Under the pieces are notes generated by a model that saw nothing but the letters and a program-made list of their open reading frames with translations, was not told the DNA's origin and did not search any database. A program made the translations under genes and the position numbers. A DNA stretch of 64,000 nucleotides, from the IMG/VR virus record IMGVR_UViG_3300028376_000003, positions 1 through 64,000 of that record. One strand, given 5' to 3'. This stretch comes from a virus. Positions 36-49,060 of the stretch are shown here, one piece after another (the stretch's first letter is position 1; each line of letters opens with the position of its first letter).

Positions 36-416
36 ATGAAGCACCTAAAAACATTTGAAAGTTTTGACCTTGGAAGATTTTCAGAAGAAGATGAAAACGA
101 ATGGATGGAAGATAGTGAAAATAACGAAGAGGGTGAAGAATCAGAACTAGAGGATGAACTTATGGATGATCAGTACTCAGATGAAGGTGAGGAAGATTTA
201 AATGACGAGAAAAGAGAAGAAATTAAAAAGAAGTTAAGTGATAAAGTAGTTGAATCTTTAACAGATAAACAAAAGAAGTTACCCAAGAAATTAAAGGCAG
301 AAATCATTAAAAAAGATGAAGATGAGTATTTAACTGCTAAACAAAAAAAATTACCAATACATTTGAAAGATTCTATAATCAAGAAAGCTAAGAAAAATAA
401 AAAAGATAAAAAATAA
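36..416 (+). CDS. Small acidic/basic protein with MKHLKTFESF leader (putative internal head protein)
   Basis: Shared N-terminal leader; D/E-rich first half, K-rich second half with LTxKQKKLP twice; AATATATA at 1-8. Confidence 0.6.
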   Translation: MKHLKTFESFDLGRFSEEDENEWMEDSENNEEGEESELEDELMDDQYSDEGEEDLNDEKREEIKKKLSDKVVESLTDKQKKLPKKLKAEIIKKDEDEYLTAKQKKLPIHLKDSIIKKAKKNKKDKK

Positions 417-5470: not shown

Positions 5471-6159
5471 ATTTTATAGCTATAATTCTTTTTGGAATAC
5501 ATCTCAGTTAGTCTATCAGTTTCCATACTTTTTATGCTTTCATAAACAACCTCTTCATATGAATCCCAAAATGCTTGGTTGTTATCAATTAGCTTACATA
5601 TAGATTCTTGATTTATTATTCGGTAAAGACCATTGAATACTTGTGAGTTTGTATACCAGTGGAGACCTGCACAGTTTGTAAATATAACCATAGAGTCTTT
5701 CCTAGCATAGTCAACATTGAAATCTGTTATGCTTTTAAGACCAAATTGTTTTACATCTCTCTCTTTGAGTTCATACGTTGGATTATTTCTAAACTTTACT
5801 TGTACAGTACATGGACCACCTTCAATATTCTTACCATATCCGTCTACCCCATTATCATCTTCTGCTGGTACTGGTAAGTAGTCATATACACCTATTCTAT
5901 TGTCTTTGCCGTAAATTATGAAGAACACCTCTGCAAATATTTCAAATAAATCCCCTGCAAACTTCATAGTACCTAGTTTTAGAGCTTCTTCTATTTCTAA
6001 ATCACTATATCCATACTCTAATGAAGATTTACTAATTAAGCTTATTTGTTTACAAATATTTGAAAAATTACCAGCAGATGCCATCATTGAGAAGTATTGT
6101 CCAAAATCTTTCTGAACAATATTGTAAAAAGCTTCATGTTTTATTATATTATCTTTCAT
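5467..6159 (-). CDS. Mrr-like PD-(D/E)xK endonuclease
   Basis: GDLFEIFAE...DNGVDG...VQVKF; stop overlaps the helicase start (ATGA). Confidence 0.7.
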   Translation of the reverse strand: MKDNIIKHEAFYNIVQKDFGQYFSMMASAGNFSNICKQISLISKSSLEYGYSDLEIEEALKLGTMKFAGDLFEIFAEVFFIIYGKDNRIGVYDYLPVPAEDDNGVDGYGKNIEGGPCTVQVKFRNNPTYELKERDVKQFGLKSITDFNVDYARKDSMVIFTNCAGLHWYTNSQVFNGLYRIINQESICKLIDNNQAFWDSYEEVVYESIKSMETDRLTEMYSKKNYSYKI

Positions 6160-7933
6160 AAGTAAATTTTAGTGATCCTATATCCCATATTCTATAATGG
6201 TGTTGTTCGTGCATTATGTCAACTTCAGTTTTATTTATATCATATCCATTCGAAACTAATATGTCTTTTCTAAAGTTGAACCTATTCTTTCTATTATAAT
6301 CTATTATATAGAAGTAATTTGATATTGTTTTGTTTAAATACTTGAAATTTAACTTTTTGTATAAATTACCCTCGCTCCAACGATAGTCAGCATAGCTTAG
6401 AATATAATTGGGATTGTATTTTTTTAAAAAATACTTAAATAATTTTGATGCACCACCCATTATAGAAAATCCTCTTTTGTTACAGAACCTAAGAAGTTCA
6501 TAATAGTCTTTTTTGCTCTTCTGTCCTAAATTCTTTCTAAGAGAACCAAATGTTATAAGCGATACTAATTCATCCTCATAGAATAATCCTATCTTTACTT
6601 TAGATCCAACAAATCCTTGTAGATGGTTATCGTTTAAAAATGTTCTAATTAGACTATTGTCCTTTATTTCTCGTATATCACATTTCCTTGCACCAATTTT
6701 TTTAGACTTCCCATACAAGTTAATTAATCTATATTTTATTATTTCTTTTTTATCTTTCCACTCATCGCTGAATATTATAACATCAAAGTCTTCCTTGGTC
6801 ATTTTATCTGAGCTAAATATTTCGCTATATTTTATGATATCACAATATTTTATCTTTAATTTTTTAGATGTTATGACATCATTTAATAATATTGCAGTAT
6901 TGTCCATGCTTCTAATAAACATAAATAGCTCAGTTATATTTGAGTTGTTTTCTGCCTTTTCGAATATATATTTAAAATCTTTTATATGTATAACTATCTC
7001 TTGGTTATCACTATCAAGGCAGATACATGTTTTTTTGTTTCTTTTTACAAGCTTATACTTTTCTTTTTTATAGTAGAAATACTCATTTTTATTTATCAGA
7101 AACTTGTTTTGTTTAATATTGTCAGAATCATTCTTATATTTAAAATAATACCTAGTGGGGTCTTTGATATCGCCTCTGCAACACTTAGATATTATAGACT
7201 CATTTATGTTAGTTTCTAGTGATGCAGATTTGACTGAATCAAATAGATTTATATAATTCATATCTAGGTCAAACATTTCAACTTCTTTATTAAATACTTG
7301 ACAAGCCTTTCTTATACTCTCATTTGAAACCTTATTTGCTCTGTGTTTTTTAAGTTTAGCTTTTACATCATCACTATGTGTCTTTCCATACATAGGGTGG
7401 TTATTTCCACTTATTAAATTAGAATGGTTGTCTTTGGTTTCTTCACTATGTTTCTTGCCATAAAAACCATTTCCCTTTCCCTTTTGCATGTCTGACATTT
7501 TGTTTAAAATTTCTTTTTTATGATTCCACTTTAGATTCTTAGCTAAATAGGTTTTTGATATTTTATTTTTTGTTATTTGAGAAGGTTTACTACTAAGCCT
7601 ACCATCACCACCATCAGTTAAATTTATTAATGTACCAGCTGATTTGTCTCTTCTTCCAATAACCTTAATATATTCCTTTTCATACAGAATAGCATCTTCG
7701 TTAGATAATTCTATTTTTATTTTAAAACTTATAATCTCAATACCTTCTTCTTTGAGCTTTGATATCTTGTTTCTTTTAAAGGGGGATTTATCATGTAGTG
7801 TTTCTTTTATTCTATTACCAATCCCCTTACCTATGTAAAAGGGTTCATAATTGAAAGTTATATTTTTATAAGCATAGTCACCAGGTTTAGACGAATCTAA
7901 TAGTGCATAAACATAGTAATTATCTTTCATCAT
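6149..7933 (-). CDS. Free-standing homing endonuclease: GIY-YIG-like domain, NUMOD3/NUMOD1-type DNA-binding repeats, C-terminal Hef-like domain
   Basis: YYVYAL...FYIGKG...R; FYGKKHSEETK and MYGKTHSDDVK; FDSVKSAS...ISKCC; C-terminal FLNDNHLQG...ELLRFC...GGASKL...SYADYRWSEG. Confidence 0.75.
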   Translation of the reverse strand: MMKDNYYVYALLDSSKPGDYAYKNITFNYEPFYIGKGIGNRIKETLHDKSPFKRNKISKLKEEGIEIISFKIKIELSNEDAILYEKEYIKVIGRRDKSAGTLINLTDGGDGRLSSKPSQITKNKISKTYLAKNLKWNHKKEILNKMSDMQKGKGNGFYGKKHSEETKDNHSNLISGNNHPMYGKTHSDDVKAKLKKHRANKVSNESIRKACQVFNKEVEMFDLDMNYINLFDSVKSASLETNINESIISKCCRGDIKDPTRYYFKYKNDSDNIKQNKFLINKNEYFYYKKEKYKLVKRNKKTCICLDSDNQEIVIHIKDFKYIFEKAENNSNITELFMFIRSMDNTAILLNDVITSKKLKIKYCDIIKYSEIFSSDKMTKEDFDVIIFSDEWKDKKEIIKYRLINLYGKSKKIGARKCDIREIKDNSLIRTFLNDNHLQGFVGSKVKIGLFYEDELVSLITFGSLRKNLGQKSKKDYYELLRFCNKRGFSIMGGASKLFKYFLKKYNPNYILSYADYRWSEGNLYKKLNFKYLNKTISNYFYIIDYNRKNRFNFRKDILVSNGYDINKTEVDIMHEQHHYRIWDIGSLKFTYER

Positions 7934-7971
7934 CTGAATTATTTACTTATATATTATATGACTTCGCCTAC

Positions 7972-9498
7972 CTATATTTCAGATTCTAGCCTAGATATCT
8001 TATTAGTAAGGCGTTTAAGTTCTTCTTTTTTCTGCATCATAATTTTTTTATTCTTCTTTCTATCTGCATATACATCTTCTAACATTCTAAGTGTTGGTGA
8101 TAAACGCTTGTTAAACACTGTTCCATTGGCACACACGACATGATTTACACTATCTATTGGTTTTTCGTTGGTACATCTTGTTTTATCATTTGGTTTTTGG
8201 ATACCAACGAAGTTTTCTGGTGATATGAAAAATTGCCTTTGTGTTGTTGGATATAGAGAAGCAAAATCATAACAAACAACCCACTGATTAAGCCCCACAA
8301 CAGGATCTCTAACCCATCCACCTTTTATTGTGGACTGTACAGGTCCTCTATCTTCTTTAAACAAAACAGTATTATCTTGTTCCCTGAATCTGTTTCTAAG
8401 GACACCTTCTGTTATTGCTAATGATGCTAACGAGTTGTTCATATGAGATATAACATCCACAATTCTTATTCTTGATAATGATGATATAGCAAATATTATT
8501 GATATATAATTTCTAGATTCGTGTATTTTTTGTACTAAGACTGAATCAACTGCATTATAATACATAAAAGTTTCGAAGTCATCTTCATATAGCTTTTGTA
8601 AAGAACCATTGTATTTTATTTTCTCCACATCAACTAGCTTACTAGCTACAAAATCTAGAGAAGAACTTTCTTTAACTTTGATAGATGTGTCTGCTATTTC
8701 ATATAGTTGCATATAGTCAAATACCATTCTATGTGCAGGTAGTTCAAATTCAGCACCCCATTGTTTAGTTATTTTATTAGTAAGTGACGATACTTTAGGA
8801 TCTATGACATATTCTTTTCCGTTAATTGTTTTAGAAAGTTTTCTAGATCTATTTACTAGGTATAACCAGTCATACTTTAAAAAGTTCCAACCAGTTAAGA
8901 CTGGCATTTTTGGAATCATTTTATGAAAGAAGTTATACATCATATCAAACTCGTCATCGTATTTAACATATCTTAATTTGTATTCAACACCAAATTTTTC
9001 AAAATACTTGTTAGTGTTGTTTCTTATACGATCTTGCATGGCTTTAGGCATATCTTTAAGACCTAATAGGATAATTTTATCATCGTATACAATTGATATT
9101 GATAAGACTTTTGTTGCTGCTCCTTCTTTTACTAGATTTTCGTCATTATCATATACATCTGCTGCTTCTGGAAATCCATCTACAATTTCTGTCTCAATGT
9201 CAATAAAGAATATTTTAGGAGTATTGAATGCAAATATTTCATCCTTTTCTTCTTCTGGGAGAGCATCTAAAAATTCATATACAGTGTATCTATCGGGATA
9301 TGATACCTCTACTTGTTTAACTCTCTTATCATCCCACGATTTGTACTTTGGGTGTTGGTACGGGTCATCATCTTGACAAGTCTCATACTTCATTGGATTA
9401 TCCCAATTATAGTATTTTAATTTTATATCACCTGATTTATCAACATAACTAACAACTAATTTCTTTTTGTGTTTCAGATATTGTGTTTCTACTAGCAT
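7972..9498 (-). CDS. Family B DNA polymerase, N-terminal part (exonuclease plus motif A); gp43A-like split subunit
   Basis: ExoI FIDIETE, ExoII TGWNFLKYD, ExoIII YNAVDS, motif A YDFASLYP; ends before KxxxNSxYG and YGDTDS; ATG 9498 preferred because a promoter lies at 9520-9547. Confidence 0.85.
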   Translation of the reverse strand: MLVETQYLKHKKKLVVSYVDKSGDIKLKYYNWDNPMKYETCQDDDPYQHPKYKSWDDKRVKQVEVSYPDRYTVYEFLDALPEEEKDEIFAFNTPKIFFIDIETEIVDGFPEAADVYDNDENLVKEGAATKVLSISIVYDDKIILLGLKDMPKAMQDRIRNNTNKYFEKFGVEYKLRYVKYDDEFDMMYNFFHKMIPKMPVLTGWNFLKYDWLYLVNRSRKLSKTINGKEYVIDPKVSSLTNKITKQWGAEFELPAHRMVFDYMQLYEIADTSIKVKESSSLDFVASKLVDVEKIKYNGSLQKLYEDDFETFMYYNAVDSVLVQKIHESRNYISIIFAISSLSRIRIVDVISHMNNSLASLAITEGVLRNRFREQDNTVLFKEDRGPVQSTIKGGWVRDPVVGLNQWVVCYDFASLYPTTQRQFFISPENFVGIQKPNDKTRCTNEKPIDSVNHVVCANGTVFNKRLSPTLRMLEDVYADRKKNKKIMMQKKEELKRLTNKISRLESEI

Positions 9499-9564
9499 AA
9501 CTAAATTTTTTATATATCTCTTATAGTAGAAGTAAACCAAAAAGTTATAAATTATTTTAAAAAT

Positions 9565-9628: not shown

Positions 9629-9991
9629 TTACCTTCTTACACCACTAGCATCACTTGCTAATCTTTTAAAATCTGTTGTTCCCTTGTCATATACAACATA
9701 AGTGATTTTCTTATTACGGCCACCCTTTCTCATATCTAATTTTCCTAGATAATCATTCTCTTTAGCTTGCTCTTGTAAGCCTTTCTTATCAAATGAAAAA
9801 GAATCCTCATCTTTTTTGACTTTGGCTTCAGCATCAGATAGTTCTTTCATAAAAGCTTTTTTTGCTTTATTAAAATCTTCCTTACTTTCATGGCCTTTAA
9901 AGAATTTTTTAACAGCTTTTTTACCTTTGTTAAAACTATCTTTCATACCTTCATTAGTAGAGAAGCTTTCAAATGTTTTTAAATTTTTCAT
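9629..9991 (-). CDS. Basic small protein with MKNLKTFESF leader (putative internal head protein)
   Basis: Shared leader; AATATATA box at 10024-10031 (-). Confidence 0.6.
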   Translation of the reverse strand: MKNLKTFESFSTNEGMKDSFNKGKKAVKKFFKGHESKEDFNKAKKAFMKELSDAEAKVKKDEDSFSFDKKGLQEQAKENDYLGKLDMRKGGRNKKITYVVYDKGTTDFKRLASDASGVRR

Positions 9992-33013: not shown

Positions 33014-33472
33014 ATGAAGCATTTAAAAACATTTAATGAAAGCGTAGAAAGTGATATAGACACACTATGTGAAAAATTTGGCATAAAGAATTACACAGTA
33101 AATAGCAATGGTAGTATCGATGTAAAAGGCGATGTTAATTTAGCTAATAAAAATTTAGCCAAATTACCAATCACCTTTTCAATGGTCGGTGGGAGTTTCT
33201 ATTGTCAAGACAATAAATTAGAGTCATTAGTTGGGTCTCCTAAAGAGGTTGTAAAGGACTTTGACTGTAGTAAAAATAAATTGAAAAATTTGAAAGGATC
33301 CCCTTCACATGTTCGTGATTTTGATTGTTCATATAATAAATTAGAGACTTTGGTAGGATCTCCTTCACACGCTCGTAATTTCGATTGTAGAAATAATCAG
33401 TTAACTTCATTAAAAGGATTGAATCAAAAACAAATGAAAAAGGTACAATCTGATGGTAATAACATTAAATAA
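33014..33472 (+). CDS. LRR-like repeat protein with MKHLKTFNES leader (orphan paralog of 39135-41588)
   Basis: Same N-cap (YTVNSNGSIDVKGDVNL...LPITF) and four FxCxxNxLxxLxGSP repeats. Confidence 0.75.
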   Translation: MKHLKTFNESVESDIDTLCEKFGIKNYTVNSNGSIDVKGDVNLANKNLAKLPITFSMVGGSFYCQDNKLESLVGSPKEVVKDFDCSKNKLKNLKGSPSHVRDFDCSYNKLETLVGSPSHARNFDCRNNQLTSLKGLNQKQMKKVQSDGNNIK

Positions 33473-39134: not shown

Positions 39135-39929
39135 TTATTCTATTATTTTATAGTGTTTTTTAATACCTTCTAAGTCAGGCATTTTTAAATCATTATCATT
39201 AATTAAAGTTCGAAGCCTATCTAACATAACAGTATCGCCATTTCTAACTATTTCATAATCTATGAAATCTTCTATGAGAAAACTATCTGCGTTTTTGATA
39301 AAGGTAAATATTAAAGAGTTTACTGGATTCCCATCTATGATTATAGGACCATTTACTTCTGGGAAGTATTCCATATCAGTTAATTTATTATTATCGCATC
39401 CAAAATAACCACCTACTGTTTGTGGACCATCCTCTAATGATATTAATTTATTATATGAACAATCAAAGCTACCATCTACTGTTTGTGGACAACCTTTTAA
39501 TAGTTTCAAATAATTATCAGAGCAATTAAAACTACCACTAATCGTTTGTGGACTACCTTCTAATGATACTAACTCATTAAAATAACATTTAAAATCCCCC
39601 TCTACTGTTTGTGGACAACTCTCCAATGACTTTAATCCATTAGAAGAACATTTAAAATCCCCCTCTACTGTTTGTGGACTACCTTCTAACGATTTTAATT
39701 TATTATGATGACAATAAAAATTACCACTCACATAATTAAATTTAAGTGGTAAATATTCTAAGTATCTTCTGTTTAAATATACACCACCATCAACATCAAT
39801 GCTCAAATCATCATTAATAGTATAATCTATTATTTTATACTTTTTACACACTTGTATAACTTCCTCTCTTGTAGTTGGAAATTTAGGACCATTGCTTTCG
39901 AATATCTTATAAGGTTTTATATGTTTCAT
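39135..39929 (-). CDS. LRR-like 21-aa repeat protein (6 repeats) with MKHIKPYKIFES leader
   Basis: VxGxFxCxxNxLxxLEGxPQT repeats between conserved N- and C-caps. Confidence 0.8.
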   Translation of the reverse strand: MKHIKPYKIFESNGPKFPTTREEVIQVCKKYKIIDYTINDDLSIDVDGGVYLNRRYLEYLPLKFNYVSGNFYCHHNKLKSLEGSPQTVEGDFKCSSNGLKSLESCPQTVEGDFKCYFNELVSLEGSPQTISGSFNCSDNYLKLLKGCPQTVDGSFDCSYNKLISLEDGPQTVGGYFGCDNNKLTDMEYFPEVNGPIIIDGNPVNSLIFTFIKNADSFLIEDFIDYEIVRNGDTVMLDRLRTLINDNDLKMPDLEGIKKHYKIIE

Positions 39930-39931
39930 GT

Positions 39932-40663
39932 CTATTCTATTATTTTATATTTTTTTTTAATTTCTTCTAAGTCAGGCATTTCTAAATCGTTATCTCTAAT
40001 GAATGTTTGAAGCCTATCTAACATAACAGTATCTCTATTTCTAACTATTTCATAATCTATAAAATCTTCTATCATAAAGATATCAGCATTTTCAATAAAA
40101 GTATATACTAATAGATTTACTAGATTTGCCCCCATATCTATAGTTCCATTTACTTCTGGGAAATGTTCTAAGTCCTTTAATTCATTACTATAACAATCAA
40201 AATTACCATTTACTGTTTGTGAACCACCCTCTAGTGTTTCTAATTCATTATAGGAACAATCAAAATCACCATCTACTGTTTGTGGACTACCTTCTAATGA
40301 TACTAACTCATTAAAATAACAAATAAAACGCCCACCTACTGTTTGTGGACAACTCTCCAATGACTTTAATCCATTAGAAGAACATTTAAAATCCCCCTCT
40401 ACTGTTTGTGGACTACCTTCTAACGATTTTAATTTATTATCATAACAATAAAAATTACCACTCACATAATTAAATTTAAGTGGTAAGTATTCTAATTTTT
40501 CCTTCTCTAAATATACACTACCATCAACACCAATACTTAAATCATCGTTTATGGTATAATTTTCTATTTCATACTTTTCACACACTTGTATAACTTCCTC
40601 TCTTGTAGTTGGGAAGTTAGGACTTTTATTCTCGAATATTTTATAAGGTTTTATATGTTTCAT
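39932..40663 (-). CDS. LRR-like 21-aa repeat protein (5 repeats)
   Basis: Paralog; 105 bp identical to its neighbour (40336-40440 = 39602-39706). Confidence 0.8.
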   Translation of the reverse strand: MKHIKPYKIFENKSPNFPTTREEVIQVCEKYEIENYTINDDLSIGVDGSVYLEKEKLEYLPLKFNYVSGNFYCYDNKLKSLEGSPQTVEGDFKCSSNGLKSLESCPQTVGGRFICYFNELVSLEGSPQTVDGDFDCSYNELETLEGGSQTVNGNFDCYSNELKDLEHFPEVNGTIDMGANLVNLLVYTFIENADIFMIEDFIDYEIVRNRDTVMLDRLQTFIRDNDLEMPDLEEIKKKYKIIE

Positions 40664-40664
40664 T

Positions 40665-41588
40665 TTATTCTATTATTTTATATTTTTTTTTAATTTTATC
40701 CAAATTAGGCATCTCTAAATCGTTATCTCTAATGAATGTTTGAAGTCTATCTAACATAACAGTATCTCTGTTTCTAACTATTTCATAGTCTATAAAATCT
40801 TCTATCATAAAAGTATCCGCTTTATTAATAAAAGTGTTTAGTAATAGATGTACTGGATTCCTGTATATATATATTGTTCCATTTACTTCTGATATGTGTT
40901 CTAAATCTTTTAATTTATTAAAAGAACAATTAAAATTACCACCCACTGTCTGTGGGCCACTTTCTAATGTTTTTAAGTTATTTCCACTACAATTAAAATC
41001 CCCCTCTACTTTTTGTGGGCTACCATTCAATGATTTTAATTTTTTATTATAAGAGCAATCAAAATACTTACCTGCTGTTTGTGGACAACCTTCTAATGTT
41101 GTTAATTCATTGCTAGAACAACCAAAACCCCCAGTTACTGTTTGTGGACAACCTTCTAATGATTGTAGTTCATTATGGCTACAATTAAAATTCCCCTCTA
41201 TTGTTTGTGGACAACCTTCTAATGATTGTAGTTCATTATGGCTACAATTAAAATTCCCCTCTATTGTTTGTGGACAACCTTCTAATGATACTAGTTTATT
41301 ATATTCACAATCAAAAACACCACCTACTGTATGTGGACAACCTTCTAATGTCTTTAATTTATTATGAGAACAATCAAAATTACCACTCACATAATTAAAT
41401 TTAAGAGGTAGATATTTTAAGCCTTTTTTATCTAAATATACATAACTACCAACATCAATACTTAAATCATCATTAATGGTATATCTTGTTATATGATACT
41501 TTTCACACACTTGCATAACTTCTTCCCTAGTAGTTGGAAATTTAGGACTATTGCTCTCGAATATTTTATAAGTTTTTATATGTTTCAT
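40665..41588 (-). CDS. LRR-like 21-aa repeat protein (8 repeats)
   Basis: Paralog; perfect 63-bp tandem duplication. Confidence 0.8.
   Translation of the reverse strand: MKHIKTYKIFESNSPKFPTTREEVMQVCEKYHITRYTINDDLSIDVGSYVYLDKKGLKYLPLKFNYVSGNFDCSHNKLKTLEGCPHTVGGVFDCEYNKLVSLEGCPQTIEGNFNCSHNELQSLEGCPQTIEGNFNCSHNELQSLEGCPQTVTGGFGCSSNELTTLEGCPQTAGKYFDCSYNKKLKSLNGSPQKVEGDFNCSGNNLKTLESGPQTVGGNFNCSFNKLKDLEHISEVNGTIYIYRNPVHLLLNTFINKADTFMIEDFIDYEIVRNRDTVMLDRLQTFIRDNDLEMPNLDKIKKKYKIIE
41139..41289. repeat. Perfect 63-bp coding tandem repeat (about 2.4 copies)
   Basis: Units start at 41139, 41202 and 41265. Confidence 0.9.
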
Positions 41589-41590
41589 GT

Positions 41591-41812
41591 TTATTTGGTT
41601 GTTTTATACAAATCTATTACTTGAGTTGATTTAACAACCTCATCAGGAGCATTCCTTATTTTTGATTCTTTTATATCATGTGAAATCCTAAGTTTTCTTT
41701 TAGTTATTTCCTCTAATATTTTAACTGGTGTTACCATATCATTGTACCAATATTCAATCAGTACAATGTCTCCAACTTTATAGAATGATTTGTATTCTAA
41801 GATATATTTCAT
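41591..41812 (-). CDS. Small SH3-like protein with MKYILEYKSF leader
   Basis: YKVGDIVLIEY; heads the LRR operon; TATATATA box 4 nt before the ATG. Confidence 0.55.
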   Translation of the reverse strand: MKYILEYKSFYKVGDIVLIEYWYNDMVTPVKILEEITKRKLRISHDIKESKIRNAPDEVVKSTQVIDLYKTTK

Positions 41813-41825
41813 GTACTATATATAA

Positions 41826-41851
41826 AAATCCCAATACAATGATTGGGATTT
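41826..41851 (-). terminator. phoH terminator merged with the next promoter
   Basis: AAATCCCAAT-N6-ATTGGGATTT; on minus the T-run continues into ATATATAG. Confidence 0.75.
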
Positions 41852-41855
41852 CCTA

Positions 41856-43631
41856 CTAAATGTCTTTTTTAAATCTATACTTATCATAGCGATTAGTTAG
41901 TTCAATTAAGAATTTATTCCTAACAATATCTTCGTTTAAAAATTCGAATGGGAATAGGTTACTCATACCACTAATCATTTCCATAAAATCATTATATCCA
42001 GAATCTCTTTTCCTAACATCATACTGTGAAGTATCTCCCATCATAACTGCCTTAGAATCAGTTCCTAATCTAGTTACCCATAGCATAAGTTGTTTTATCG
42101 TAACATTCTGACACTCATCTAATAACATTATACAATTATCATATGTTGATCCTCTCATATATGCTAATGGTTCAAATATAATCTCATCATTTTCAAATAA
42201 TTCATCTGTTGTTTCTTTACCTATTATCTTGACGAATGTTGTATAATAAGATTGCTTATAAGGTTGTAGCTTCTCATCCTTATCACCAGGCAAAGCACCT
42301 AAGTTTTCACCACTCTCTTGTATGGGTTTAGTGATTATAATGGTCTCTATTTTCTTATCAGCTAGAAGTCCTAATGCTGCATAACAGGTGGTAAATGTAT
42401 TGTGTGTGACTATATAATCATTGGTTAGATATAGACTTGACTCGCTATCGACCTTTATACACTGTGCTTCTTTTTTGCCTATTAACTTAGCACCAACGAT
42501 GTGCCTACGTGGTATGTATTTAGTTTTAGGAACTACCAAATCCTTCTTTCTTTTAAGTTTAAAAGGATTTATATTTGGATTCATTTTTATTGAAATTGTA
42601 TAAGCCAATCTACCTGTTTTTAGTTCCCCATTGTATGTATATTTATTATAAACTGGTGTGTGGTAAGTCCCTGTACCACCTAGTGATTGAACTAATTCAA
42701 TAACATCAGCGGTTAACTTTTTAGATGTTGATGTAAATGATACATAAAATCCATCTTTACTCACTGTTCCATCAGTATCCATAAGACCTCTTAATAGTTC
42801 TATTCTATTGGTTATAGAGTTAAATTTATAGCAATTAGGTATAAATTTTTGATAACTTAATTTACCAAATAATCCTATCTTAATGAGATACTGCTTATAT
42901 CTATTCTTATATTCAGATATGTTTTTAGTAATACAATAATCAATATCATTTCTCTTAACTAAATTCATGCCATCATCAATAGAATTTTTTATAGTTTCTA
43001 TTATTTCTGAATCCACAGAAGTAAATCCTATACTTCCTCTTAGACAACCATCTCCAATTAAACATCCAATAACATATGGATCAATATCAATATCTATCTT
43101 GTTAAATTCTACTGGCTCAGTTATAGGTATAGTGTGGTTTATTCTATTTCTCTTTGTATATAATGTCTCCACAATTTCAGTTGTCGTTTTTACAGTACCA
43201 TCTAACGGTGATTTATACCTTTTCCTTATACCATTTGTTGTTTTTGTCCACTTCCTATAGCTTCTATCTTTTTCAGTTTGGGTTAACCATAAATGATCTC
43301 CACAACATTCAGTTTTAGTTCCATCAGAAAATGATATTTCCCATATTTCCTTTTTACCTTGTGGGAATATACCAATAACTCTAGTAGGTTTCCCATCCTT
43401 AGAAATAACATTATCATTTAATTTTAAATCTCCCATTCTAGACCACCCATTTGGTGTTAGTACAGGAGTTTCCATAGGTTGTGCTTTACTAGTACCTGCT
43501 GGACCGTGTACTGTAGTAAGTATATTATTTCTAATACCTTTGTATAATTTGTCTTGTTTAATACTTAACTCTACACCACTTTTAGTAAACTGTTGTTTGT
43601 TTAATGAATTCTTTTTTTTAGATTTTCCCAT
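41856..43631 (-). CDS. phoH: PhoH-family ATPase interrupted by an intein
   Basis: GPAGTSK|T, LGALPGD, PLAYMRG, DECQN, TRLG, GDTSQYD, DIVRN. Confidence 0.9.
   Translation of the reverse strand: MGKSKKKNSLNKQQFTKSGVELSIKQDKLYKGIRNNILTTVHGPAGTSKAQPMETPVLTPNGWSRMGDLKLNDNVISKDGKPTRVIGIFPQGKKEIWEISFSDGTKTECCGDHLWLTQTEKDRSYRKWTKTTNGIRKRYKSPLDGTVKTTTEIVETLYTKRNRINHTIPITEPVEFNKIDIDIDPYVIGCLIGDGCLRGSIGFTSVDSEIIETIKNSIDDGMNLVKRNDIDYCITKNISEYKNRYKQYLIKIGLFGKLSYQKFIPNCYKFNSITNRIELLRGLMDTDGTVSKDGFYVSFTSTSKKLTADVIELVQSLGGTGTYHTPVYNKYTYNGELKTGRLAYTISIKMNPNINPFKLKRKKDLVVPKTKYIPRRHIVGAKLIGKKEAQCIKVDSESSLYLTNDYIVTHNTFTTCYAALGLLADKKIETIIITKPIQESGENLGALPGDKDEKLQPYKQSYYTTFVKIIGKETTDELFENDEIIFEPLAYMRGSTYDNCIMLLDECQNVTIKQLMLWVTRLGTDSKAVMMGDTSQYDVRKRDSGYNDFMEMISGMSNLFPFEFLNEDIVRNKFLIELTNRYDKYRFKKDI
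42399..43484 (-). mobile_element. Class 3 intein (362 aa) with LAGLIDADG homing endonuclease
   Basis: Starts AQP, ends THN|T; W in block B (DHLW), C in block F (AQCI), T in block G; IGCLIGDG and LRGLMDTDG. Confidence 0.9.
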
Positions 43632-43957: not shown

Positions 43958-46900
43958 ATGTGGGAATATAACAAAATAGAAGATAAATGGTTTAGTAAGA
44001 AAGATACTTTAATTCATGACAATTATGAATTTTTAAAACAAGAACAAGAAAGTGTTAGGTTTTATTCAAATTGTCTAAGTGGTGCTACTTATATACCATT
44101 TAATGATGAAGATAATATATATGATATACTATCAAATAGAAGATATAAGACATGGTATATTGATCCAAGTGTTTCTGATTATGTTAGCACATTAGTACCA
44201 CCTAGGTATCCCATGCCTATAAATAGGGATACTGCATATGAATTTTATACAAAGAATTTATCAGAATATGGACTTACTCTAAAAAACCTTTTCACACCAG
44301 AGAAAATAATAGGAGAATCTTTTAATAGCTTCATATATGTTGACTTGGCAACAACAGATGATATACTAGACTTAAGTGCAAATCTTGGAGATACTAAAAT
44401 AGATGGTGTTAGAGTTTTAGAAGGACATAGAGTACTTGTAAAAGACCAAAAGAAAACTATTATATTACAAATAACAACAAATCCAGATGATTTCTTCGAA
44501 GGAAATTATACTGTAGTAGATACATTGGGTACTAATACTACTTATGAGTATTTTGATGAAAGGAATGGTATATATTTGGTAAAAAATGATAGGCTTGTTA
44601 AAGAAGATGATTTAGACGATTATCAGAAGTGTATTAGATATAGTGTAAGTGTTAAATTAGGTTTAGTGAATAAAGATAAACAGTTTCATCTGTCTAGGTT
44701 ATCTAATGGATATTATCCAACAACTAGATTTAATGAGCCTATTGAATTTGTTCAAAAAGAAAATAAACTACTTAGAAATCAATTAGATTATAATAACATA
44801 GCCGATTTAAATTATTACGACCTTTTAAAACACGGAACACAATCGTATGAGTTTAACGAAACCAATTACTCAATACCAGAGAGGATAATATCTGTTGGAG
44901 AATTTGGATCTATTATAAATAATCAAGACGGTAGAAGCAATATAATAAGAAATAAGTTTAAAGTAGATTTGAAAAGTATATCACAGACTACATTATATTA
45001 TTGGATAGTGGGTAATAAGGGTAATCTATTAAGAACTAGGAAACACGATTTTGAAGTAGATAAAATAGAGTTAATAAAATCTAATACACAAGTCGTGAGT
45101 AATTTAAATTCTATATCATTCTTTAATGATCTTAATGGTGTTTTGGTTGGTGATAATAATACAATATTTATAACATCTAATGGTGGCAAGGATTGGATAC
45201 CATTTGATGTTAAGGCTTTTCAATCATTTAATTTTAACAAAGTTATCTTTTATAATACAAATAAGATATTTATAGGTGGGGATAATGGCGTGTTTTTAGA
45301 GATTAAGAACGATGGTGATAAATGGACGGCATTCAAGAGGAGGATATCCAAATTTTTAGATGAAGATGATGAGTTTTTATTAGTTGATAATATAAATGAT
45401 ATAATCATAACAACCGTTGATAATTGGAATCCATTTTATACATCGTTCAATGCTTCTGAGTCTAATATAACTATAACTGATAGTCCGAAGGAACTAGTTA
45501 TAATAGTTACCAATGATAGTAATATAATATTTTATGATATAAATGAATCTATACCACTTGATACTGATTTTTTATTTATGGAGTTTAAGGACAAAAACTA
45601 CGGGGATATAGTAAATATTGAGAGAAAGGAAGGTACTAATACTTTTTATTTTGTTGGTTTTAATCAAGAAACAGATAGTAATGGTATATTTTCATTCAGT
45701 TTAGATGATTTCAATTCTATAGGAGTTGGAACACGCTTTGATAATAGGTCTATAACTGCAACTAATGCTAACTTTGTTTCTGAACTATATCCAAATAAGT
45801 TATTTGACTTTGGGGGTAACGAAATAGTTATATGTGGTAATAATTCTTTACTTAGTAGTTCTGATTATAATACCTTAGTATTTGAGGATATAGATGATAC
45901 ATTCTTGAACAAGTTAAAGTCAAAGATGTTATTCCTAGATTATGATATTGCTAGTAAATTAAACTTTTTCACAGACGATGGTGAATACAGACTACCAGAA
46001 TCTATAGAAATAAGCTATGATTCTATCAGTGGTAGTATAGAGTTTTCGTCCTTTGAAAATGAGACTAACTGGATAGATTATTGGAAAGATAGTACATCAA
46101 CATTCGAACACTATACTAACTCACCAATGACAGACACAACCAAAGTGGAATTTTCGTCTAAATTTACTAAAACAGAAGAAAATGTACAAAGGTTTATAAA
46201 AGGGATTTCTACATCAGATGATGATTTATTAAAATTATCACCAAGTCTATACAATGATAAATTTAGTAGATTTAGTTCAATTTCACAACCACAAGTGTCT
46301 AGACCACTTGATTCTGCTATAAACATATATCTTGGTAGTTATTTAATGGTTATAAAATATAGTAATTTAAGTGATATACCAAGTAAGGGCGATATCATAA
46401 ATGTAGAAACAAATTTTCTAAATGAAAACTTTATGGTTAATAAAACTGTTGTGTTTTTAGATAATACATTTGTATATCTATATACAGAGTTTAACCAATC
46501 TATTATTAATATGTTTAAAAATTCAGAGATTAAAATAACTAATTTAAACAGATTTAATTCTAGAGATTCACTTGTATCTAATTTTAAAAAACATCCATTA
46601 TATAAGGGATATGATATAATACTTAACAATAATGGTGTAATAAATTTTAGACCTAAATTCAATAACATAACATCATATTATAATATGACTACATCACTTA
46701 ATCTTAATGATGGTGAGGAAACATTTACAATGGAATATAAAAATTCATTTTTGAAATTTGGTTACACACCAACTTATAATTTATTAGACTATTTAGAGTC
46801 TATTAATGATATAAATACAGTAAATCCTAGATTCTTCCCAACAAAGGAATATTACTCTATGCCCGTTTATAGTAACATACCAGTCTCTGCAAATGATATA

Positions 46901-49060
46901 AATTCTATTTATATTGACTATAATATAAAGAAGAATAATAAATTAGTTTTTGGCTCTAATTTAGAATTTGAATGGAAGAGTATTTTTTTAAATACCTTTG
47001 TTAATATAAATTTATACCAAGACGAAGATTTATCTTCAAATGAACAGATGTTGGTTTTTGATAAATATTATGAACAAAGCACGGATACGTATATTATAGA
47101 GTTCCACAAAGAATTTATTTACCCAAATGAAAACCAAGTTAATCCACTAACCTCAATTGATATAGAGTCAAGAAGATCACTAGAGGTTATAAGTAGTGAT
47201 TTACAGTTATTGAATAATATACAAAGGTCATATTCTACTAAGAAGTATAAATCTGGGACTTTTGATTCTGGTCAGATTTGGGATGTAGAATATGAAAATC
47301 TAAATAAAAAATTAAATTTCAAAGTAAATACTGATTCCTATGCTAAAATATTATTATCAGACTTTACGACTAATAATTCTATAAGTGGTATAGTCTATAC
47401 TGATTTTAAAAATGAATTAGCACTCAATATAACTAGATTAGAGGAAAGAGTAACTGTTCCAATATTGAATACAAGTGAGTTTCAGAATAAATTATATGTT
47501 TCTTGTTCACAAAAGCACGAACTTTCAAATGGGGATGGTGTTATATTAGATTTTAATGGTGGTGATGGATCATCAGAAGAACTTAATCCTCAGTATTTTG
47601 GATATAGAGTTGTTAATGTAATAAACGAATTTGACTTAGTCACTGATATAAATTATGGAAATAGGCCTTTAATTGGAACAGATACTGGGACTGTTAGATA
47701 TATTAGGAAAGATCCCTTTTTAAATTATCAACCAACAGACCTTATAGATGTTGGTGTTGATAAACTAGGTAAGGTGTCTATAGAATTGAATCCACAGAAC
47801 ACCACACTAGTTGGTAGTTTATATTCTCTATCAAACGTAGATTATAATAGATTCAGATTTAGATTAGTTGATGGTCTTGATGTTGAGACTTTAGCAAGAA
47901 ACTATTCATGGATTTATGAGAGTGAGATAAGCGATGCTGTTATTGGTCTTGATAATAATGGTCTAGTATGGTATAAAGGAAGATGGGAATGTGGTAGATG
48001 GTTTGGTGGTACGTGGATAAGTGGTACTTGGTTATCTGGAGATTGGTTTGATGGTATATGGAAGTCAAAAAATATAAAGGATAATTTTATAAATGTAACC
48101 ATTGATGCAAACTCTGATAACAATATTAGTTCGGTATGGAATACTGGTAGATGGTTTGGTGGTACTTGGGAAAATGGTACTTGGAATACTGGTAGATGGT
48201 ATGATGGAAAGTGGATAAACGGACAATGGTTTGACGGTCTCTGGAATGGTGGTACTTGGGAAAATGGTATATTTACAAGTGGTATATGGATAGATGGTAC
48301 TTGGAATAATGGAAGGTTTAGCACAGATAACGGACCAGCTTATTGGTTAGGTGGTACTTGGAATGGTGGAGATTTTGATAATGGAATTTGGTTTAATGGT
48401 GTTTTTGATGAAAAAAACGGTGTTGAGTCAAGATTTGGTGTTAAATCATATAATAGTAGAGCCTCTATTTGGAAGTCTGGTAAATTTATCAATGGAACCT
48501 TTCATTCTAGATTAAATATTGACACTAATGGTAATTATGATGTATCAGAAGTACATAAATACTCTATATGGGAGACAGGAACTTGGTTTAGTGGGGGATT
48601 TTATGGTGGCGTTGCTTATAATATAGACTTTAGGTCTGGTGTGTGGTATGGTGGAATTGTAGAGGATATTAACATTGTTGGTATTAATATAGAAAATAAC
48701 TACATAACTATTGATAAGCCTTATAGTTATAATATAGGGGATCAAATAACTATTATTGCAGATAAAACATCATCTTTTAGTAGTATATCTAGAAAAATTG
48801 ATATATATAATCTAGGAACTAATGAAGAGCCTGGTATATATTCTGTTGTAAATACTATTCAAAATGAAAATACCAGTGATATATATCTTGATATAAATAT
48901 ACAAGACACTGTAAATGAACAAAACTTAGATTTTAGGTCGGTTAGTAGGTTTAGGAATGCAGATTGGAGAAGTGGTCTTTGGTTTAATGGATTATTTGAG
49001 AACGGTATATGGAAAGGTGGTGTGTGGTATGATGGTGTATTTAGTGCAGACTGGTCATAA
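43958..49060 (+). CDS. Large virion (tail/baseplate) protein with BNR/Ycf48-like propeller and Trp-Gly pentapeptide repeats
   Basis: IDGVRVLEGHRVLVKDQ...NGIY; TSNGGKDW; many GxWxx repeats near the C-terminus. Confidence 0.65.
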   Translation: MWEYNKIEDKWFSKKDTLIHDNYEFLKQEQESVRFYSNCLSGATYIPFNDEDNIYDILSNRRYKTWYIDPSVSDYVSTLVPPRYPMPINRDTAYEFYTKNLSEYGLTLKNLFTPEKIIGESFNSFIYVDLATTDDILDLSANLGDTKIDGVRVLEGHRVLVKDQKKTIILQITTNPDDFFEGNYTVVDTLGTNTTYEYFDERNGIYLVKNDRLVKEDDLDDYQKCIRYSVSVKLGLVNKDKQFHLSRLSNGYYPTTRFNEPIEFVQKENKLLRNQLDYNNIADLNYYDLLKHGTQSYEFNETNYSIPERIISVGEFGSIINNQDGRSNIIRNKFKVDLKSISQTTLYYWIVGNKGNLLRTRKHDFEVDKIELIKSNTQVVSNLNSISFFNDLNGVLVGDNNTIFITSNGGKDWIPFDVKAFQSFNFNKVIFYNTNKIFIGGDNGVFLEIKNDGDKWTAFKRRISKFLDEDDEFLLVDNINDIIITTVDNWNPFYTSFNASESNITITDSPKELVIIVTNDSNIIFYDINESIPLDTDFLFMEFKDKNYGDIVNIERKEGTNTFYFVGFNQETDSNGIFSFSLDDFNSIGVGTRFDNRSITATNANFVSELYPNKLFDFGGNEIVICGNNSLLSSSDYNTLVFEDIDDTFLNKLKSKMLFLDYDIASKLNFFTDDGEYRLPESIEISYDSISGSIEFSSFENETNWIDYWKDSTSTFEHYTNSPMTDTTKVEFSSKFTKTEENVQRFIKGISTSDDDLLKLSPSLYNDKFSRFSSISQPQVSRPLDSAINIYLGSYLMVIKYSNLSDIPSKGDIINVETNFLNENFMVNKTVVFLDNTFVYLYTEFNQSIINMFKNSEIKITNLNRFNSRDSLVSNFKKHPLYKGYDIILNNNGVINFRPKFNNITSYYNMTTSLNLNDGEETFTMEYKNSFLKFGYTPTYNLLDYLESINDINTVNPRFFPTKEYYSMPVYSNIPVSANDINSIYIDYNIKKNNKLVFGSNLEFEWKSIFLNTFVNINLYQDEDLSSNEQMLVFDKYYEQSTDTYIIEFHKEFIYPNENQVNPLTSIDIESRRSLEVISSDLQLLNNIQRSYSTKKYKSGTFDSGQIWDVEYENLNKKLNFKVNTDSYAKILLSDFTTNNSISGIVYTDFKNELALNITRLEERVTVPILNTSEFQNKLYVSCSQKHELSNGDGVILDFNGGDGSSEELNPQYFGYRVVNVINEFDLVTDINYGNRPLIGTDTGTVRYIRKDPFLNYQPTDLIDVGVDKLGKVSIELNPQNTTLVGSLYSLSNVDYNRFRFRLVDGLDVETLARNYSWIYESEISDAVIGLDNNGLVWYKGRWECGRWFGGTWISGTWLSGDWFDGIWKSKNIKDNFINVTIDANSDNNISSVWNTGRWFGGTWENGTWNTGRWYDGKWINGQWFDGLWNGGTWENGIFTSGIWIDGTWNNGRFSTDNGPAYWLGGTWNGGDFDNGIWFNGVFDEKNGVESRFGVKSYNSRASIWKSGKFINGTFHSRLNIDTNGNYDVSEVHKYSIWETGTWFSGGFYGGVAYNIDFRSGVWYGGIVEDINIVGINIENNYITIDKPYSYNIGDQITIIADKTSSFSSISRKIDIYNLGTNEEPGIYSVVNTIQNENTSDIYLDINIQDTVNEQNLDFRSVSRFRNADWRSGLWFNGLFENGIWKGGVWYDGVFSADWS

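Follow-up and report, generated by a model that had tools for sequence, protein, structure and literature searches.

The window analysed here is a stretch of 64,000 nucleotides, positions 1 to 64,000 of IMG/VR virus record IMGVR_UViG_3300028376_000003, which comes from lake samples, within a contig of 141.5 kb that has a GC content of 28% and is estimated to be 20% complete. Three paralogous genes lie side by side on the minus strand of the window, in the same orientation and with gaps of only 1-2 nt between their open reading frames. Paralog 1 (40665-41588) encodes a protein of 307 aa, consisting of a 12-aa leader, an N-terminal cap, 8 repeat units of 21 aa each (except one of 22), a C-terminal cap and a C-terminal domain of about 75 aa. 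Paralog 2 (39932-40663) encodes 243 aa with 5 units, and paralog 3 (39135-39929), the protein that was modelled, encodes 264 aa with 6 units. The leader codons of paralog 1, MKHIKTYKIFES, occupy positions 41553-41588 of the minus strand, and the leaders of the other two paralogs are found at 40628-40663 and 39894-39929 of that strand. A 63-bp period is detected in each of the three genes by Tandem Repeats Finder. A first-pass annotation of the window had described an array of paralogs with repeats and variable sites, and that observation is confirmed as a whole, including the counts of 8, 5 and 6 units, which were obtained again by anchoring on GxFxCxxN. The annotation extended the array over 39135-41812, which is accurate for the three genes but not for 41591-41812 (minus strand), a separate 73-aa open reading frame that lies directly upstream of paralog 1, is co-oriented with it, does not belong to the family, and keeps its position in the related strain locus L030.

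A short member of the same family is encoded on the plus strand at 33014-33472. Its 152 aa comprise the leader MKHLKTFNES, an N-terminal cap and 4 units of 20-21 aa. The claim that this gene is a fourth copy is borne out by a genuine family match (E 1.7e-28), although it is a more distant relative than the three paralogs are of one another, and the constant C-terminal domain is missing from it. At least three further copies are located at the far end of the contig, at 140015-141527, so that at least two arrays are present in this genome, and relatives number in the thousands in metagenomes. The family is carried by a clade of uncultured phages with genomes of approximately 0.6-0.7 Mb, for which Flavobacteriia and Sphingobacteriia are hinted at as candidate hosts. 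The 136 distinct proteins collected are 180-369 aa long, with 83% falling at 201+21n residues, plus or minus one, and their arrays contain up to 12 genes; these lengths imply a range of unit numbers wider than the 5-8 of the three window paralogs and the 4 of the copy at 33014. The common gene layout is a 12-residue leader, MKHIKxYKIFE-S/N, followed by an N-terminal cap, 21-residue units, a C-terminal cap and a constant alpha/beta domain of about 75 residues, and all 136 distinct copies are complete open reading frames with leader, caps, stop codon and reading frame intact.

The neighbours of the three-gene array are PhoH, a SHOCT-domain protein and small open reading frames, and recognisable tail or fibre genes are not adjacent. 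Many arrays are located at contig ends, indicating that they break assemblies. Scans for regulatory signals add little: sigma-70 promoter matches are below expectation (19, versus 25 expected from shuffles), the terminator scan yielded nothing useful for the array, and the motif TAATATATA is not enriched overall (17 occurrences, versus 11.6 expected). Most copies of TAATATATA are found just upstream of start codons. No named family in Pfam or PHROGs was found for the repeat proteins, the 73-aa open reading frame or the small proteins that carry the leader.

The repeat unit has the 21-residue core VxGxFxCxxNxL. Across 565 units, V1 is conserved at 90%, G3 at 100%, F5 at 99%, C7 at 99%, N10 at 100% and L12 at 98%, and L15 and P19 are likewise nearly fixed. 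The family profile finds its best match among solved structures in the leucine-rich repeats (LRRs) of InlJ (3bz5, E 7e-15), and also matches those of IpaH, SspH and YopM. Pfam thresholds for LRRs are not reached: LRR_4, whose cut-off is 27 bits, scores 16.8-18.4, and LRRNT also remains below its own cut-off. The family has diverged too far for these models. The AlphaFold2 model of the 264-aa paralog 3 has a mean pLDDT of 82.7, rising above 90 over a solenoid at residues 20-190, and DSSP assigns one strand per unit, at unit positions 5-6. When the model is searched with Foldseek, the top matches are the LRRs of IpaH9.8, SspH1 and IpaH7.8 at probability 1.0, together with viral LRR proteins. Thus the fold model and the fold search concur that the proteins are bacterial-type LRR solenoids, as the first-pass annotation had proposed, and in the model Phe5, Cys7 and Asn10 of each unit would be the builders of the core.

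The remaining parts of the protein are less readily classified. Folded alone from 52 sequences, the constant C-terminal domain reaches a pLDDT of 68.9, and the best match among 48,161 PDB representatives has a Z score of 3.0, so that no fold is assigned. Only viral look-alikes were found for the domain in the Atlas, other rows being below a TM of 0.5, and Pfam has no match in the C-terminal part of the LRR proteins. The C-terminus ends in ...YKIIE, while the N-terminus is the charged leader MKHIKxYKIFES, which is devoid of a hydrophobic stretch; the proteins have no signal peptide.

Variation within the units is concentrated at positions 4, 6, 8 and 9, where entropy amounts to 2.8-3.3 bits in the 565 units. 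These are x positions of xGxFxCxxN, where variation had been noted before, and they flank the buried Phe and Cys of the inner beta-strand. The predicted binding face therefore consists of positions 4, 6, 8 and 9, with lesser contributions from 2 and 11, pointing outward from the inner beta-sheet, where a single face is deduced from the strand positions and from the alternation of variable with buried residues. At the variable sites dN/dS is 2.64 (bootstrap 1.82-3.71, Fisher p 1e-5), as compared to 0.23 in the scaffold and 0.24-0.43 in the N-terminal cap and C-terminal domain; these are Nei-Gojobori estimates in which dN approaches saturation, made on paralog pairs that are partly non-independent and come from a genome of 28% GC. 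Synonymous divergence at the variable codons equals that at scaffold codons. The comparison supports diversifying selection on positions 4, 6, 8 and 9 of the unit.

The same genes bear traces of recombination. A tract of 105 nt at 39602-39706 in paralog 3 (minus strand) is identical to 40336-40440 in paralog 2, exactly as first reported, and the run is not due to chance because none of 20,000 permutations of the differences produced one equally long; it is the footprint of a gene conversion or crossover event. In paralog 1, positions 41139-41289 (minus strand) had been described as a perfect 63-bp duplication. The repeat is indeed perfect, but its extent is greater, consisting of an 88-nt match at an offset of 63 (41139-41226 equals 41202-41289). 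The match comprises a pair of identical 63-bp units with 25 nt in addition, and is attributed to in-register duplication or conversion of a unit. Close relatives of paralog 1 differ from it at the same scale: P0001 is 97% identical with a diverged unit 4, and P0002-P0004 (286 aa) possess one unit fewer.

Comparison of strains extends these observations from units to whole genes. Locus L030 has seven genes in the slot that holds three here, between flanks that are 95-97% identical. Paralog 1 is co-linear with and nearly identical to gene 1 of L030 apart from two differences: its unit 4 duplicates unit 3, and its 3' end resembles L030 gene 4. Paralog 2 is the counterpart of gene 6 of the seven-gene array, while paralog 3 is chimeric, with 39755-39590 matching units of L030 gene 6 and 39575-39135 matching L030 gene 7. 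The second array likewise diverges sharply from that of strain L007 immediately after a flank of 98.9% identity. Gene and unit numbers thus vary among strains whose flanking sequences are 95-99% identical, and the difference between three and seven genes, the chimeric genes and the alleles that differ by one unit bear out the earlier proposal of a repertoire diversified by recombination. The pattern supports a process in which modules and whole genes are shuffled by ordinary, inherited recombination, with the genes of the window being apparent chimeras of genes like those of L030.

A different set of observations concerns the leader, whose presence had been noticed from the outset. It is a strongly conserved peptide common to unrelated genes. 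It has a dN/dS of 0.02 with dS saturated at 1.2-1.4, and conservation of the peptide in spite of saturated synonymous sites argues against a purely nucleotide-level role. The motif begins 9 of about 160 genes (6 LRR genes and 3 unrelated genes), where 0.03 would be expected, and is found after none of 694 internal methionines. Residues 1-12 are disordered in the AlphaFold2 model (pLDDT below 50) and lie outside the fold. Leaders of the LRR family end in I-F-E; F10 and E11 never vary, and I9 hardly does. This I-x-E ending resembles the head-protease site of phage T4, whose internal proteins IPI, IPII and IPIII carry a capsid targeting sequence and counter host restriction (PMC3012670). Leader-like starts are also present on proteins of LR756502, the nearest complete relative, where a protease-scaffold open reading frame contains about 14 YSEYIAE repeats, again with I-x-E, and itself gives a sub-threshold S77 protease match (22.7 bits, against the Pfam cut-off of 27). 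T4-type protease and capsid families gave no match on the 141-kb fragment, approximately 20% of the genome, but these searches say little because no control genome gave a match either. By analogy with T4, packaging of the LRR proteins in the head is plausible, falling somewhat short of probable.

That the array encodes a family of LRR binders diversifying by recombination and positive selection is a conclusion in which we have high confidence. In the mechanism that we propose, amino-acid substitution under positive selection would renew the repertoire at the face positions, in-register recombination between 63-bp units would add, remove or copy units, and crossovers and gene conversion between paralogs in their constant parts would generate chimeric genes and cause arrays to grow or shrink. 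In the course of infection the resulting proteins may attach to host proteins that vary, defence proteins perhaps among them, and the constant C-terminal domain, whose fold is unmatched (best Z 3.0), might couple the different binders to one common partner, which is a guess. The leader would act as a T4-like capsid-targeting tag processed by the head protease, and the proteins would thereby enter the head and reach the host together with the DNA. Taken as a whole, an inherited family of small, signal-less LRR binders that is packaged and directed against host proteins is the explanation towards which we lean, by a modest degree; that the targets belong to anti-bacteriophage defence is, taken singly, doubtful. 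The interpretation offered in the first-pass annotation is accordingly upheld in part, namely for the LRR solenoid, the selected variable sites and the shuffling of modules.

How the diversity arises, and whether it serves any function, could be explained otherwise. Repetitiveness alone would be compatible with neutral or selfish tandem repeats that have no binding function, but purifying selection on scaffold, caps, leader and C-terminal domain (dN/dS 0.02-0.44), the excess of amino-acid change at four face positions per unit and the intact frames of the 136 distinct copies disfavour this idea to the point where it is hardly credible. Only marginally better placed is a dedicated mechanism, either a diversity-generating retroelement that rewrites AAY codons or somatic assembly of cassettes like that of lamprey variable lymphocyte receptors (VLRs), which we regard as extremely unlikely. 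NNY codons, mostly NNT, make up 83-94% of the variable positions versus 53% overall, and Lys, Glu and Gln are almost absent there, superficially like an outcome of adenine mutagenesis. Against this, NNR codons occur at 6-17% of the variable sites, synonymous divergence is normal, and no reverse transcriptase (RVT_1) was found in the contig (about 20% of the genome), in three related contigs or in a complete 642-kb relative, whereas control genomes were positive; a retroelement is therefore rejected. VLR-like assembly is rejected as well, since each copy is a whole gene that has its own start and stop, and strains differ from one another by fixed changes.

Where the proteins act is a more evenly balanced question. 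The same diversifying LRR binders could be synthesised after infection and engage host proteins inside the cell without ever being packaged, in the manner of the ankyrin and LRR host-range families of large eukaryotic viruses, in which case the leader would have another purpose, such as efficient translation start, stability or intracellular sorting. All of the evidence from structure and evolution is equally compatible with this possibility. A head protease and a capsid gene were not found on the fragment, the three unrelated proteins have leaders that finish in T-F-E or F-N-E instead of I/L-x-E, and a homologue from a cultured Vibrio phage has eight such units with no leader. We nevertheless judge it rather unlikely, in that the leader peptide is kept despite saturated synonymous sites, is disordered outside the fold, and resembles both the tag of T4 and the repeats in the LR756502 scaffold. 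Display on the virion surface is very unlikely by comparison; here the C-terminal domain would dock on capsid, tail or fibres and the LRR face would bind the host surface or environmental particles, widening or shifting host range. In its favour, the pairing of a constant domain with a variable binder suits docking, fibre proteins of phage Goslar bear LRR or beta-helix modules for which a function in host recognition has been proposed, and a variable LRR-like tail-module protein has been reported in a vibriophage. The array, however, is not beside recognisable tail or fibre genes, the C-terminal domain does not match a known fibre or decoration fold, and the up to 12 paralogs of an array would require equally many docking sites.

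The most elaborate version of the packaged reading is a strain-specific LRR set that is loaded into the capsid and injected, with each binder tuned to one host defence or sensor protein and the C-terminal domain handing the bound target to a common phage effector. We consider this version clearly unlikely, and the same applies to its suggested example of an effector, a Lon-type protease that is encoded on the same contig. If this version is nonetheless correct, the arrays would amount to counter-defence by an inherited repertoire in a virus that infects bacteria, and if the leader is a true head-loading tag, a varied protein cargo would be delivered at infection, changing the view of counter-defence in giant phages. 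In plants and jawless vertebrates, LRR repertoires whose concave face evolves fast typify immune recognition, and they likewise typify the way in which bacterial effectors target their hosts. Finding the same design in a virus of bacteria points to a large and unstudied arms-race class of phage proteins. Searches of the literature found no description of phage LRR arrays. For binder engineering, the family could be of interest as a set of small LRR scaffolds supplied by nature, with a cysteine ladder and four defined variable positions in every unit.

Among known systems, InlJ of Listeria (PDB 3bz5) is the closest in its repeats, sharing a 21-residue unit, a Cys at the sixth core position of nearly every unit and an Asn ladder; the alignment places Cys on Cys. 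InlJ, however, is a secreted, cell-wall-anchored surface protein of a pathogen, whereas the phage proteins have no signal peptide, give no Pfam match to the internalin N-terminal domain, and differ in their N-terminal cap, the Val-x-Gly before the core, the C-terminal domain of about 75 aa and the arrangement of genes in tandem arrays. The unit core itself belongs to an LRR class that is already published. As outlined in PMC8181103, the 'novel' VxGxLxLxxNxL class (Miyashita, Kuroki and Matsushima 2014, PMID 24164306) has Val at core position 1 and Gly at 3, followed by (L/F/C)x(L/F/C)xxNxL, and its description was based on proteins from bacteria and unicellular eukaryotes; the phage core agrees with this outline position by position. 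The effectors IpaH, SspH and YopM, the best fold matches, likewise combine short-unit LRRs for target recognition with a constant C-terminal part. The NEL ubiquitin-ligase domain of IpaH and SspH is absent from the phage proteins, which have the ~75-residue domain in its place, are not type III secretion substrates, and would have bacterial targets, if any.

The internal proteins of T4 are similar in another respect, carrying a short N-terminal tag that is common to unrelated proteins and ends in Glu preceded by I-x, and having diverse, fast-changing payloads encoded at a locus that is variable in T-even phages. Packaging and cleavage are proven in T4 and putative for the present proteins, and a single LRR family in arrays of up to 12 genes makes up the payload here, where T4 has a handful of small proteins unrelated to each other. 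Viruses of eukaryotes that have big genomes also possess large repeat-protein families that grow and shrink. Entomopoxvirus has an LRR gene family, and many giant-virus LRR proteins are among the Foldseek matches; Cafeteria roenbergensis virus has a family of FNIP/FGxxFN LRRs (PMC9525666). The phage family differs from these in its bacterial host, its LRR subtype, its leader resembling a head tag and the shuffling of units between near-identical strains.

The receptors of lampreys and plants (VLRs and NLRs) resemble the phage proteins in placing diversity on exposed residues of the concave beta-sheet and in obtaining new combinations by recombination of LRR modules. In lampreys, the VLR gene is incomplete in the germline and is completed somatically from cassettes. 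The parallel with VLRs that was drawn in the first-pass annotation thus applies to the variable concave face and not to programmed assembly, since every phage copy is a complete, inherited gene, and it is between strains and between paralogs that these copies vary.

The three LRR genes of the array encode proteins of 307 aa (40665-41588), 243 aa (39932-40663) and 264 aa (39135-39929), and are called as minus-strand ORFs lying head to tail with gaps of 1-2 nt and a 63-bp period in each (Tandem Repeats Finder). Anchoring on GxFxCxxN yields 8, 5 and 6 units, respectively, the same counts as in the first-pass annotation, and alignment bears out the near-constant N- and C-terminal parts described there: the N-terminal 66 and the last ~95 residues are nearly unchanged across the three paralogs, while the middle differs by whole units. 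The 105-bp tract reported as common to paralogs is exact (39602-39706 = 40336-40440), and 0 of 20,000 permutations of the differences gave an identical run of that length. Other details required revision. What had been described as a perfect 63-bp duplication (41139-41289) is a perfect repeat at offset 63, but the match extends over 88 nt (41139-41226 = 41202-41289), and two units of the 307-aa gene are therefore identical. The proposed array range of 39135-41812 holds the three LRR genes, but 41591-41812 contains a distinct 73-aa ORF, which neither Pfam nor PHROGs assigns to a family. Similarly, the fourth copy placed at 33014, a 152-aa ORF with four units, belongs to the family but is more distant and is missing the C-terminal domain.

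Pfam searches with the LRR proteins returned nothing above threshold, only sub-threshold LRR matches, and PHROGs placed them in two families whose function is not named. The fold was instead identified by profile search, AlphaFold2 modelling and Foldseek. A family profile of 27 full-length relatives, run against solved structures, matched best to Listeria InlJ (3bz5, E 7e-15), an LRR protein known for its 21-residue units and cysteine ladder; next came the LRR domains of IpaH, SspH and YopM. The LRR-like solenoid first suggested from sequence was recovered in the AlphaFold2 model of the 264-aa protein (mean pLDDT 82.7), where residues 20-190 (pLDDT >90) fold into a regular solenoid to which each unit contributes one short strand, at positions 5-6. 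The first Foldseek matches were the LRRs of IpaH9.8, SspH1 and IpaH7.8 (probability 1.0), and matches in a viral library were LRR proteins from giant viruses and uncultured tailed phages. The window family is thus an LRR family, and its core class is already published: VxGxFxCxxNxL fits the 'novel' LRR core VxGxLxLxxNxL, in which L is Leu, Phe or Cys (as given in review PMC8181103). Residues 1-12 are disordered in the model, and the last ~75 residues form a small alpha/beta domain, modelled moderately (pLDDT 68.9 with 52 sequences), for which no structural match was found (best Z 3.0) and whose look-alikes are viral only.

The 119 closest relatives supplied 565 units, in which V1, G3, F5, C7, N10, L12, L15 and P19 are 90-100% conserved, and entropy is 2.8-3.3 bits at positions 4, 6, 8 and 9 and ~2.3 bits at positions 2 and 11, in agreement with the variation originally noticed at the x positions of xGxFxCxxN. 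In the canonical LRR core, positions 4, 6, 8 and 9 are equivalent to x3, x5, x7 and x8, where ligands are classically contacted, and the variable positions are predicted to alternate with buried Phe5 and Cys7 along the inner strand. Residues found there are mostly Asn, Asp, Tyr, Ser, Gly, Phe, His and Arg, with NNY codons making up 83-94% at variable sites versus 53% overall; the variable sites have few Lys, Glu and Gln residues, which are common at positions 11 and 13.

The per-position dN/dS comparison proposed at first reading used the Nei-Gojobori method on 12 disjoint same-length pairs of 78-90% nucleotide identity. At the four variable positions dN/dS was 2.64 (bootstrap 1.82-3.71; Fisher p 1e-5; >1 in 10 of 12 pairs), as compared to 0.23 in the repeat scaffold, 0.36 in the N-cap, 0.24 in the C-domain and 0.02 in the leader (dS 1.2), values that are approximate counts with dN near saturation, drawn from non-independent paralogs in an AT-rich genome. 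Closer pairs (90-99.9% identity) gave the same pattern, 3.2 versus 0.33-0.44. Because the variable codons and the scaffold have diverged equally at synonymous sites, this contrast is not a codon-bias artefact, and on the gap between 2.64 and the 0.02-0.36 found elsewhere neutral repeats were rejected. The variable inner face is under diversifying selection, and the caps, leader and C-domain are constant and under purifying selection.

Module shuffling, as had been claimed, can be seen directly as unit copies and losses and as chimeric genes. In P0001, the database protein closest to the 307-aa protein (97% identical), unit 4 has diverged, while the window's unit 4 is a copy of unit 3. The 286-aa relatives P0002-P0004 have one unit fewer. 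A metagenome locus on a 90.6-kb contig, L030, matches the window's two flanks at 97.1% (toward PhoH) and 95% identity, and carries seven genes between them (307, 222, 346, 203, 264, 243 and 243 aa) versus three in the window. When the window array was mapped onto L030 by sliding best match, the 307-aa gene corresponded to L030 gene 1, apart from a 3' end like that of gene 4, and the 243-aa gene to L030 gene 6. The 264-aa gene is chimeric: its mosaic 5' part is followed by an L030 gene 6 tract that accounts for the 105-nt identity, the remainder being L030 gene 7. The chimera junctions between window and L030 are located in constant parts.

A second LRR array starts at contig 140015-141527 (L004:16015-17527), with three further copies, the last cut by the contig end. 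In the 1,026 nt ahead of this array, identity to a close strain, L007, is 98.9%, but it falls to ~87% inside the array's first gene, with unit indels, and the array there (L007:1027-10260) comprises 12 genes. Many LRR arrays are positioned at contig ends, and our contig probably stops at the second array since repeats break assembly. Over 45 loci, we found 136 distinct proteins of 180-369 aa, 83% of them at 201+21n +/-1 residues, and co-oriented arrays of up to 12 genes. Strain-level variation, one of the checks proposed at first reading, is directly evident both in the gene counts of L030 and in the unit indels of L007. The shuffling and the strain variation are explained by ordinary homologous recombination, among 63-bp units as well as among paralogs. 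A retroelement-driven mechanism was rejected because no reverse transcriptase turned up in the contig, three related contigs or the 642-kb relative, and a somatic one because every copy is a complete gene. Recombination at the unit and gene level thus renews the family, and arrays differ between close strains.

Genes for 550-640-aa proteins adjoin LRR arrays in most related loci, the window's three-gene array not among them; they occur at contig 130022-131761 (-) and 137471-139279 (+) and in loci L005, L006, L008-L012, L018 and L020. These neighbours match PHROG 3339/559 'homing/HNH endonuclease' and Pfam DUF7487, and a nuclease next to LRR arrays could stimulate recombination.

The window is the initial 64 kb of a 141.5-kb viral contig of 28% GC, which CheckV estimates to be ~20% complete, implying a genome of several hundred kb. 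Judged by gene content, the contig looks like a tailed-phage genome, with genes for NAD-dependent ligase, PhoH, a Lon-type protease, helicases and homing endonucleases, and most of its large proteins are without family. Its nearest complete relatives are phages LR756502 (642 kb) and LR745206 (635 kb), with 66% identity in the Lon-type protease. An intein carrying a LAGLIDADG homing endonuclease interrupts the PhoH-like gene (window 41856-43631, -), which has Pfam matches to PhoH (residues 411-582), LAGLIDADG_3 (residues 278-328) and, weakly, Hint near the N-terminus. Between PhoH and the 73-aa ORF is a hairpin (window 41813-41857, -) consisting of AATCCCAAT, a 6-nt loop and ATTGGGATT, then a T-run; it was not called in a terminator scan, and TATATATA follows it a few bases ahead of an ATG. 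Family B DNA polymerase motifs (exonuclease and early polymerase) mark an ORF (window 7972-9540, -) that adjoins a GIY-YIG/NUMOD3 endonuclease gene (window 6149-7933, -), and the polymerase of this region (window 6149-9540) may be split by a mobile endonuclease. A 1,700-aa protein (window 43958-49060, +) that matched no PHROG family has many GxW/GxWxxG repeats in its C-terminal region, and may be a fibre or beta-solenoid particle protein. The sequence TAATATATA has 17 sites in the window versus 11.6 expected, and hence no overall enrichment (examples at 7948, 10024, 16120, 30473, 32316, 35885, 37737, 43646, 43693, 52256 and 63289); it is a candidate promoter element because most copies precede a start codon on the same strand by 5-35 nt.

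The clustered database holds 3,036 near-length relatives, and the 264-aa query retrieved 17,532 representative clusters at E 1e-3 or better, among them proteins that have many units and a different N-terminal part. Other subfamilies likewise come in arrays of their own, whose leader-like starts differ, such as the seven MKLKQLFES genes of locus L013. Annotated phages with the repeat are two Vibrio phages of 196 kb, Lak phages and metagenomic phages of 635-735 kb; the Vibrio phage protein, with its eight highly regular units, lacks the window family's leader. Searching 185,579 species genomes with N-cap and leader patterns turned up just two loci, a Sphingobacteriales MAG contig and a Flavobacterium locus. 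The latter, a chromosomal Flavobacterium azizsancarii homologue of 194 aa (L096:2998-3582, +), has the same N-cap and 3-4 units without a leader, and is probably on a mobile element or prophage because a serine recombinase gene adjoins it. These two loci hint weakly at a Bacteroidota host. We infer that the family proteins bind variable host molecules and that the C-domain couples them to a common partner. LRR multigene families are known from giant eukaryotic viruses (PMC9525666); our literature search found no description of tandem, recombining LRR arrays in phages, nor of their leader.

The leader, initially read as a packaging signal, is not confined to LRR proteins. The motif MK[H/N][L/I]KxF/Y starts 9 of ~160 contig genes (0.03 expected from composition) and none of 694 internal Met positions. 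Six of these genes are LRR genes and three are unrelated, encoding an acidic-then-basic 126-aa protein (window 36-416, +) and a Lys-rich 120-aa protein (window 9629-9991, -), both without a Pfam family, and a 211-aa protein with an HExxH motif (contig 103583-104218, -). The peptide lies outside the fold and is conserved while its own synonymous sites are saturated. No T4-type protease or capsid match was found on the 141.5-kb fragment, in searches that hit nothing in control genomes either. In LRR proteins the leader ends I-F-E, with F10 and E11 invariant, in agreement with the (L/I)-x-Glu rule of the T4 head protease; the three unrelated leaders end T-F-E or F-N-E. In phage LR756502, the single LRR protein and a neighbouring gene both begin with leader-like peptides, and a protease-scaffold fusion ORF (L029:1447-3360, +) has a weak sub-threshold S77 match followed by ~14 tandem NIxYSEYIAENLDK-type repeats, which contain I-x-E and resemble the T4 capsid targeting sequence. 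Leader conservation, the likeness to T4 and these scaffold repeats make head loading by way of the leader plausible, by analogy. The diverse internal proteins with which T4 counters host restriction have only a short capsid targeting sequence in common (PMC3012670).
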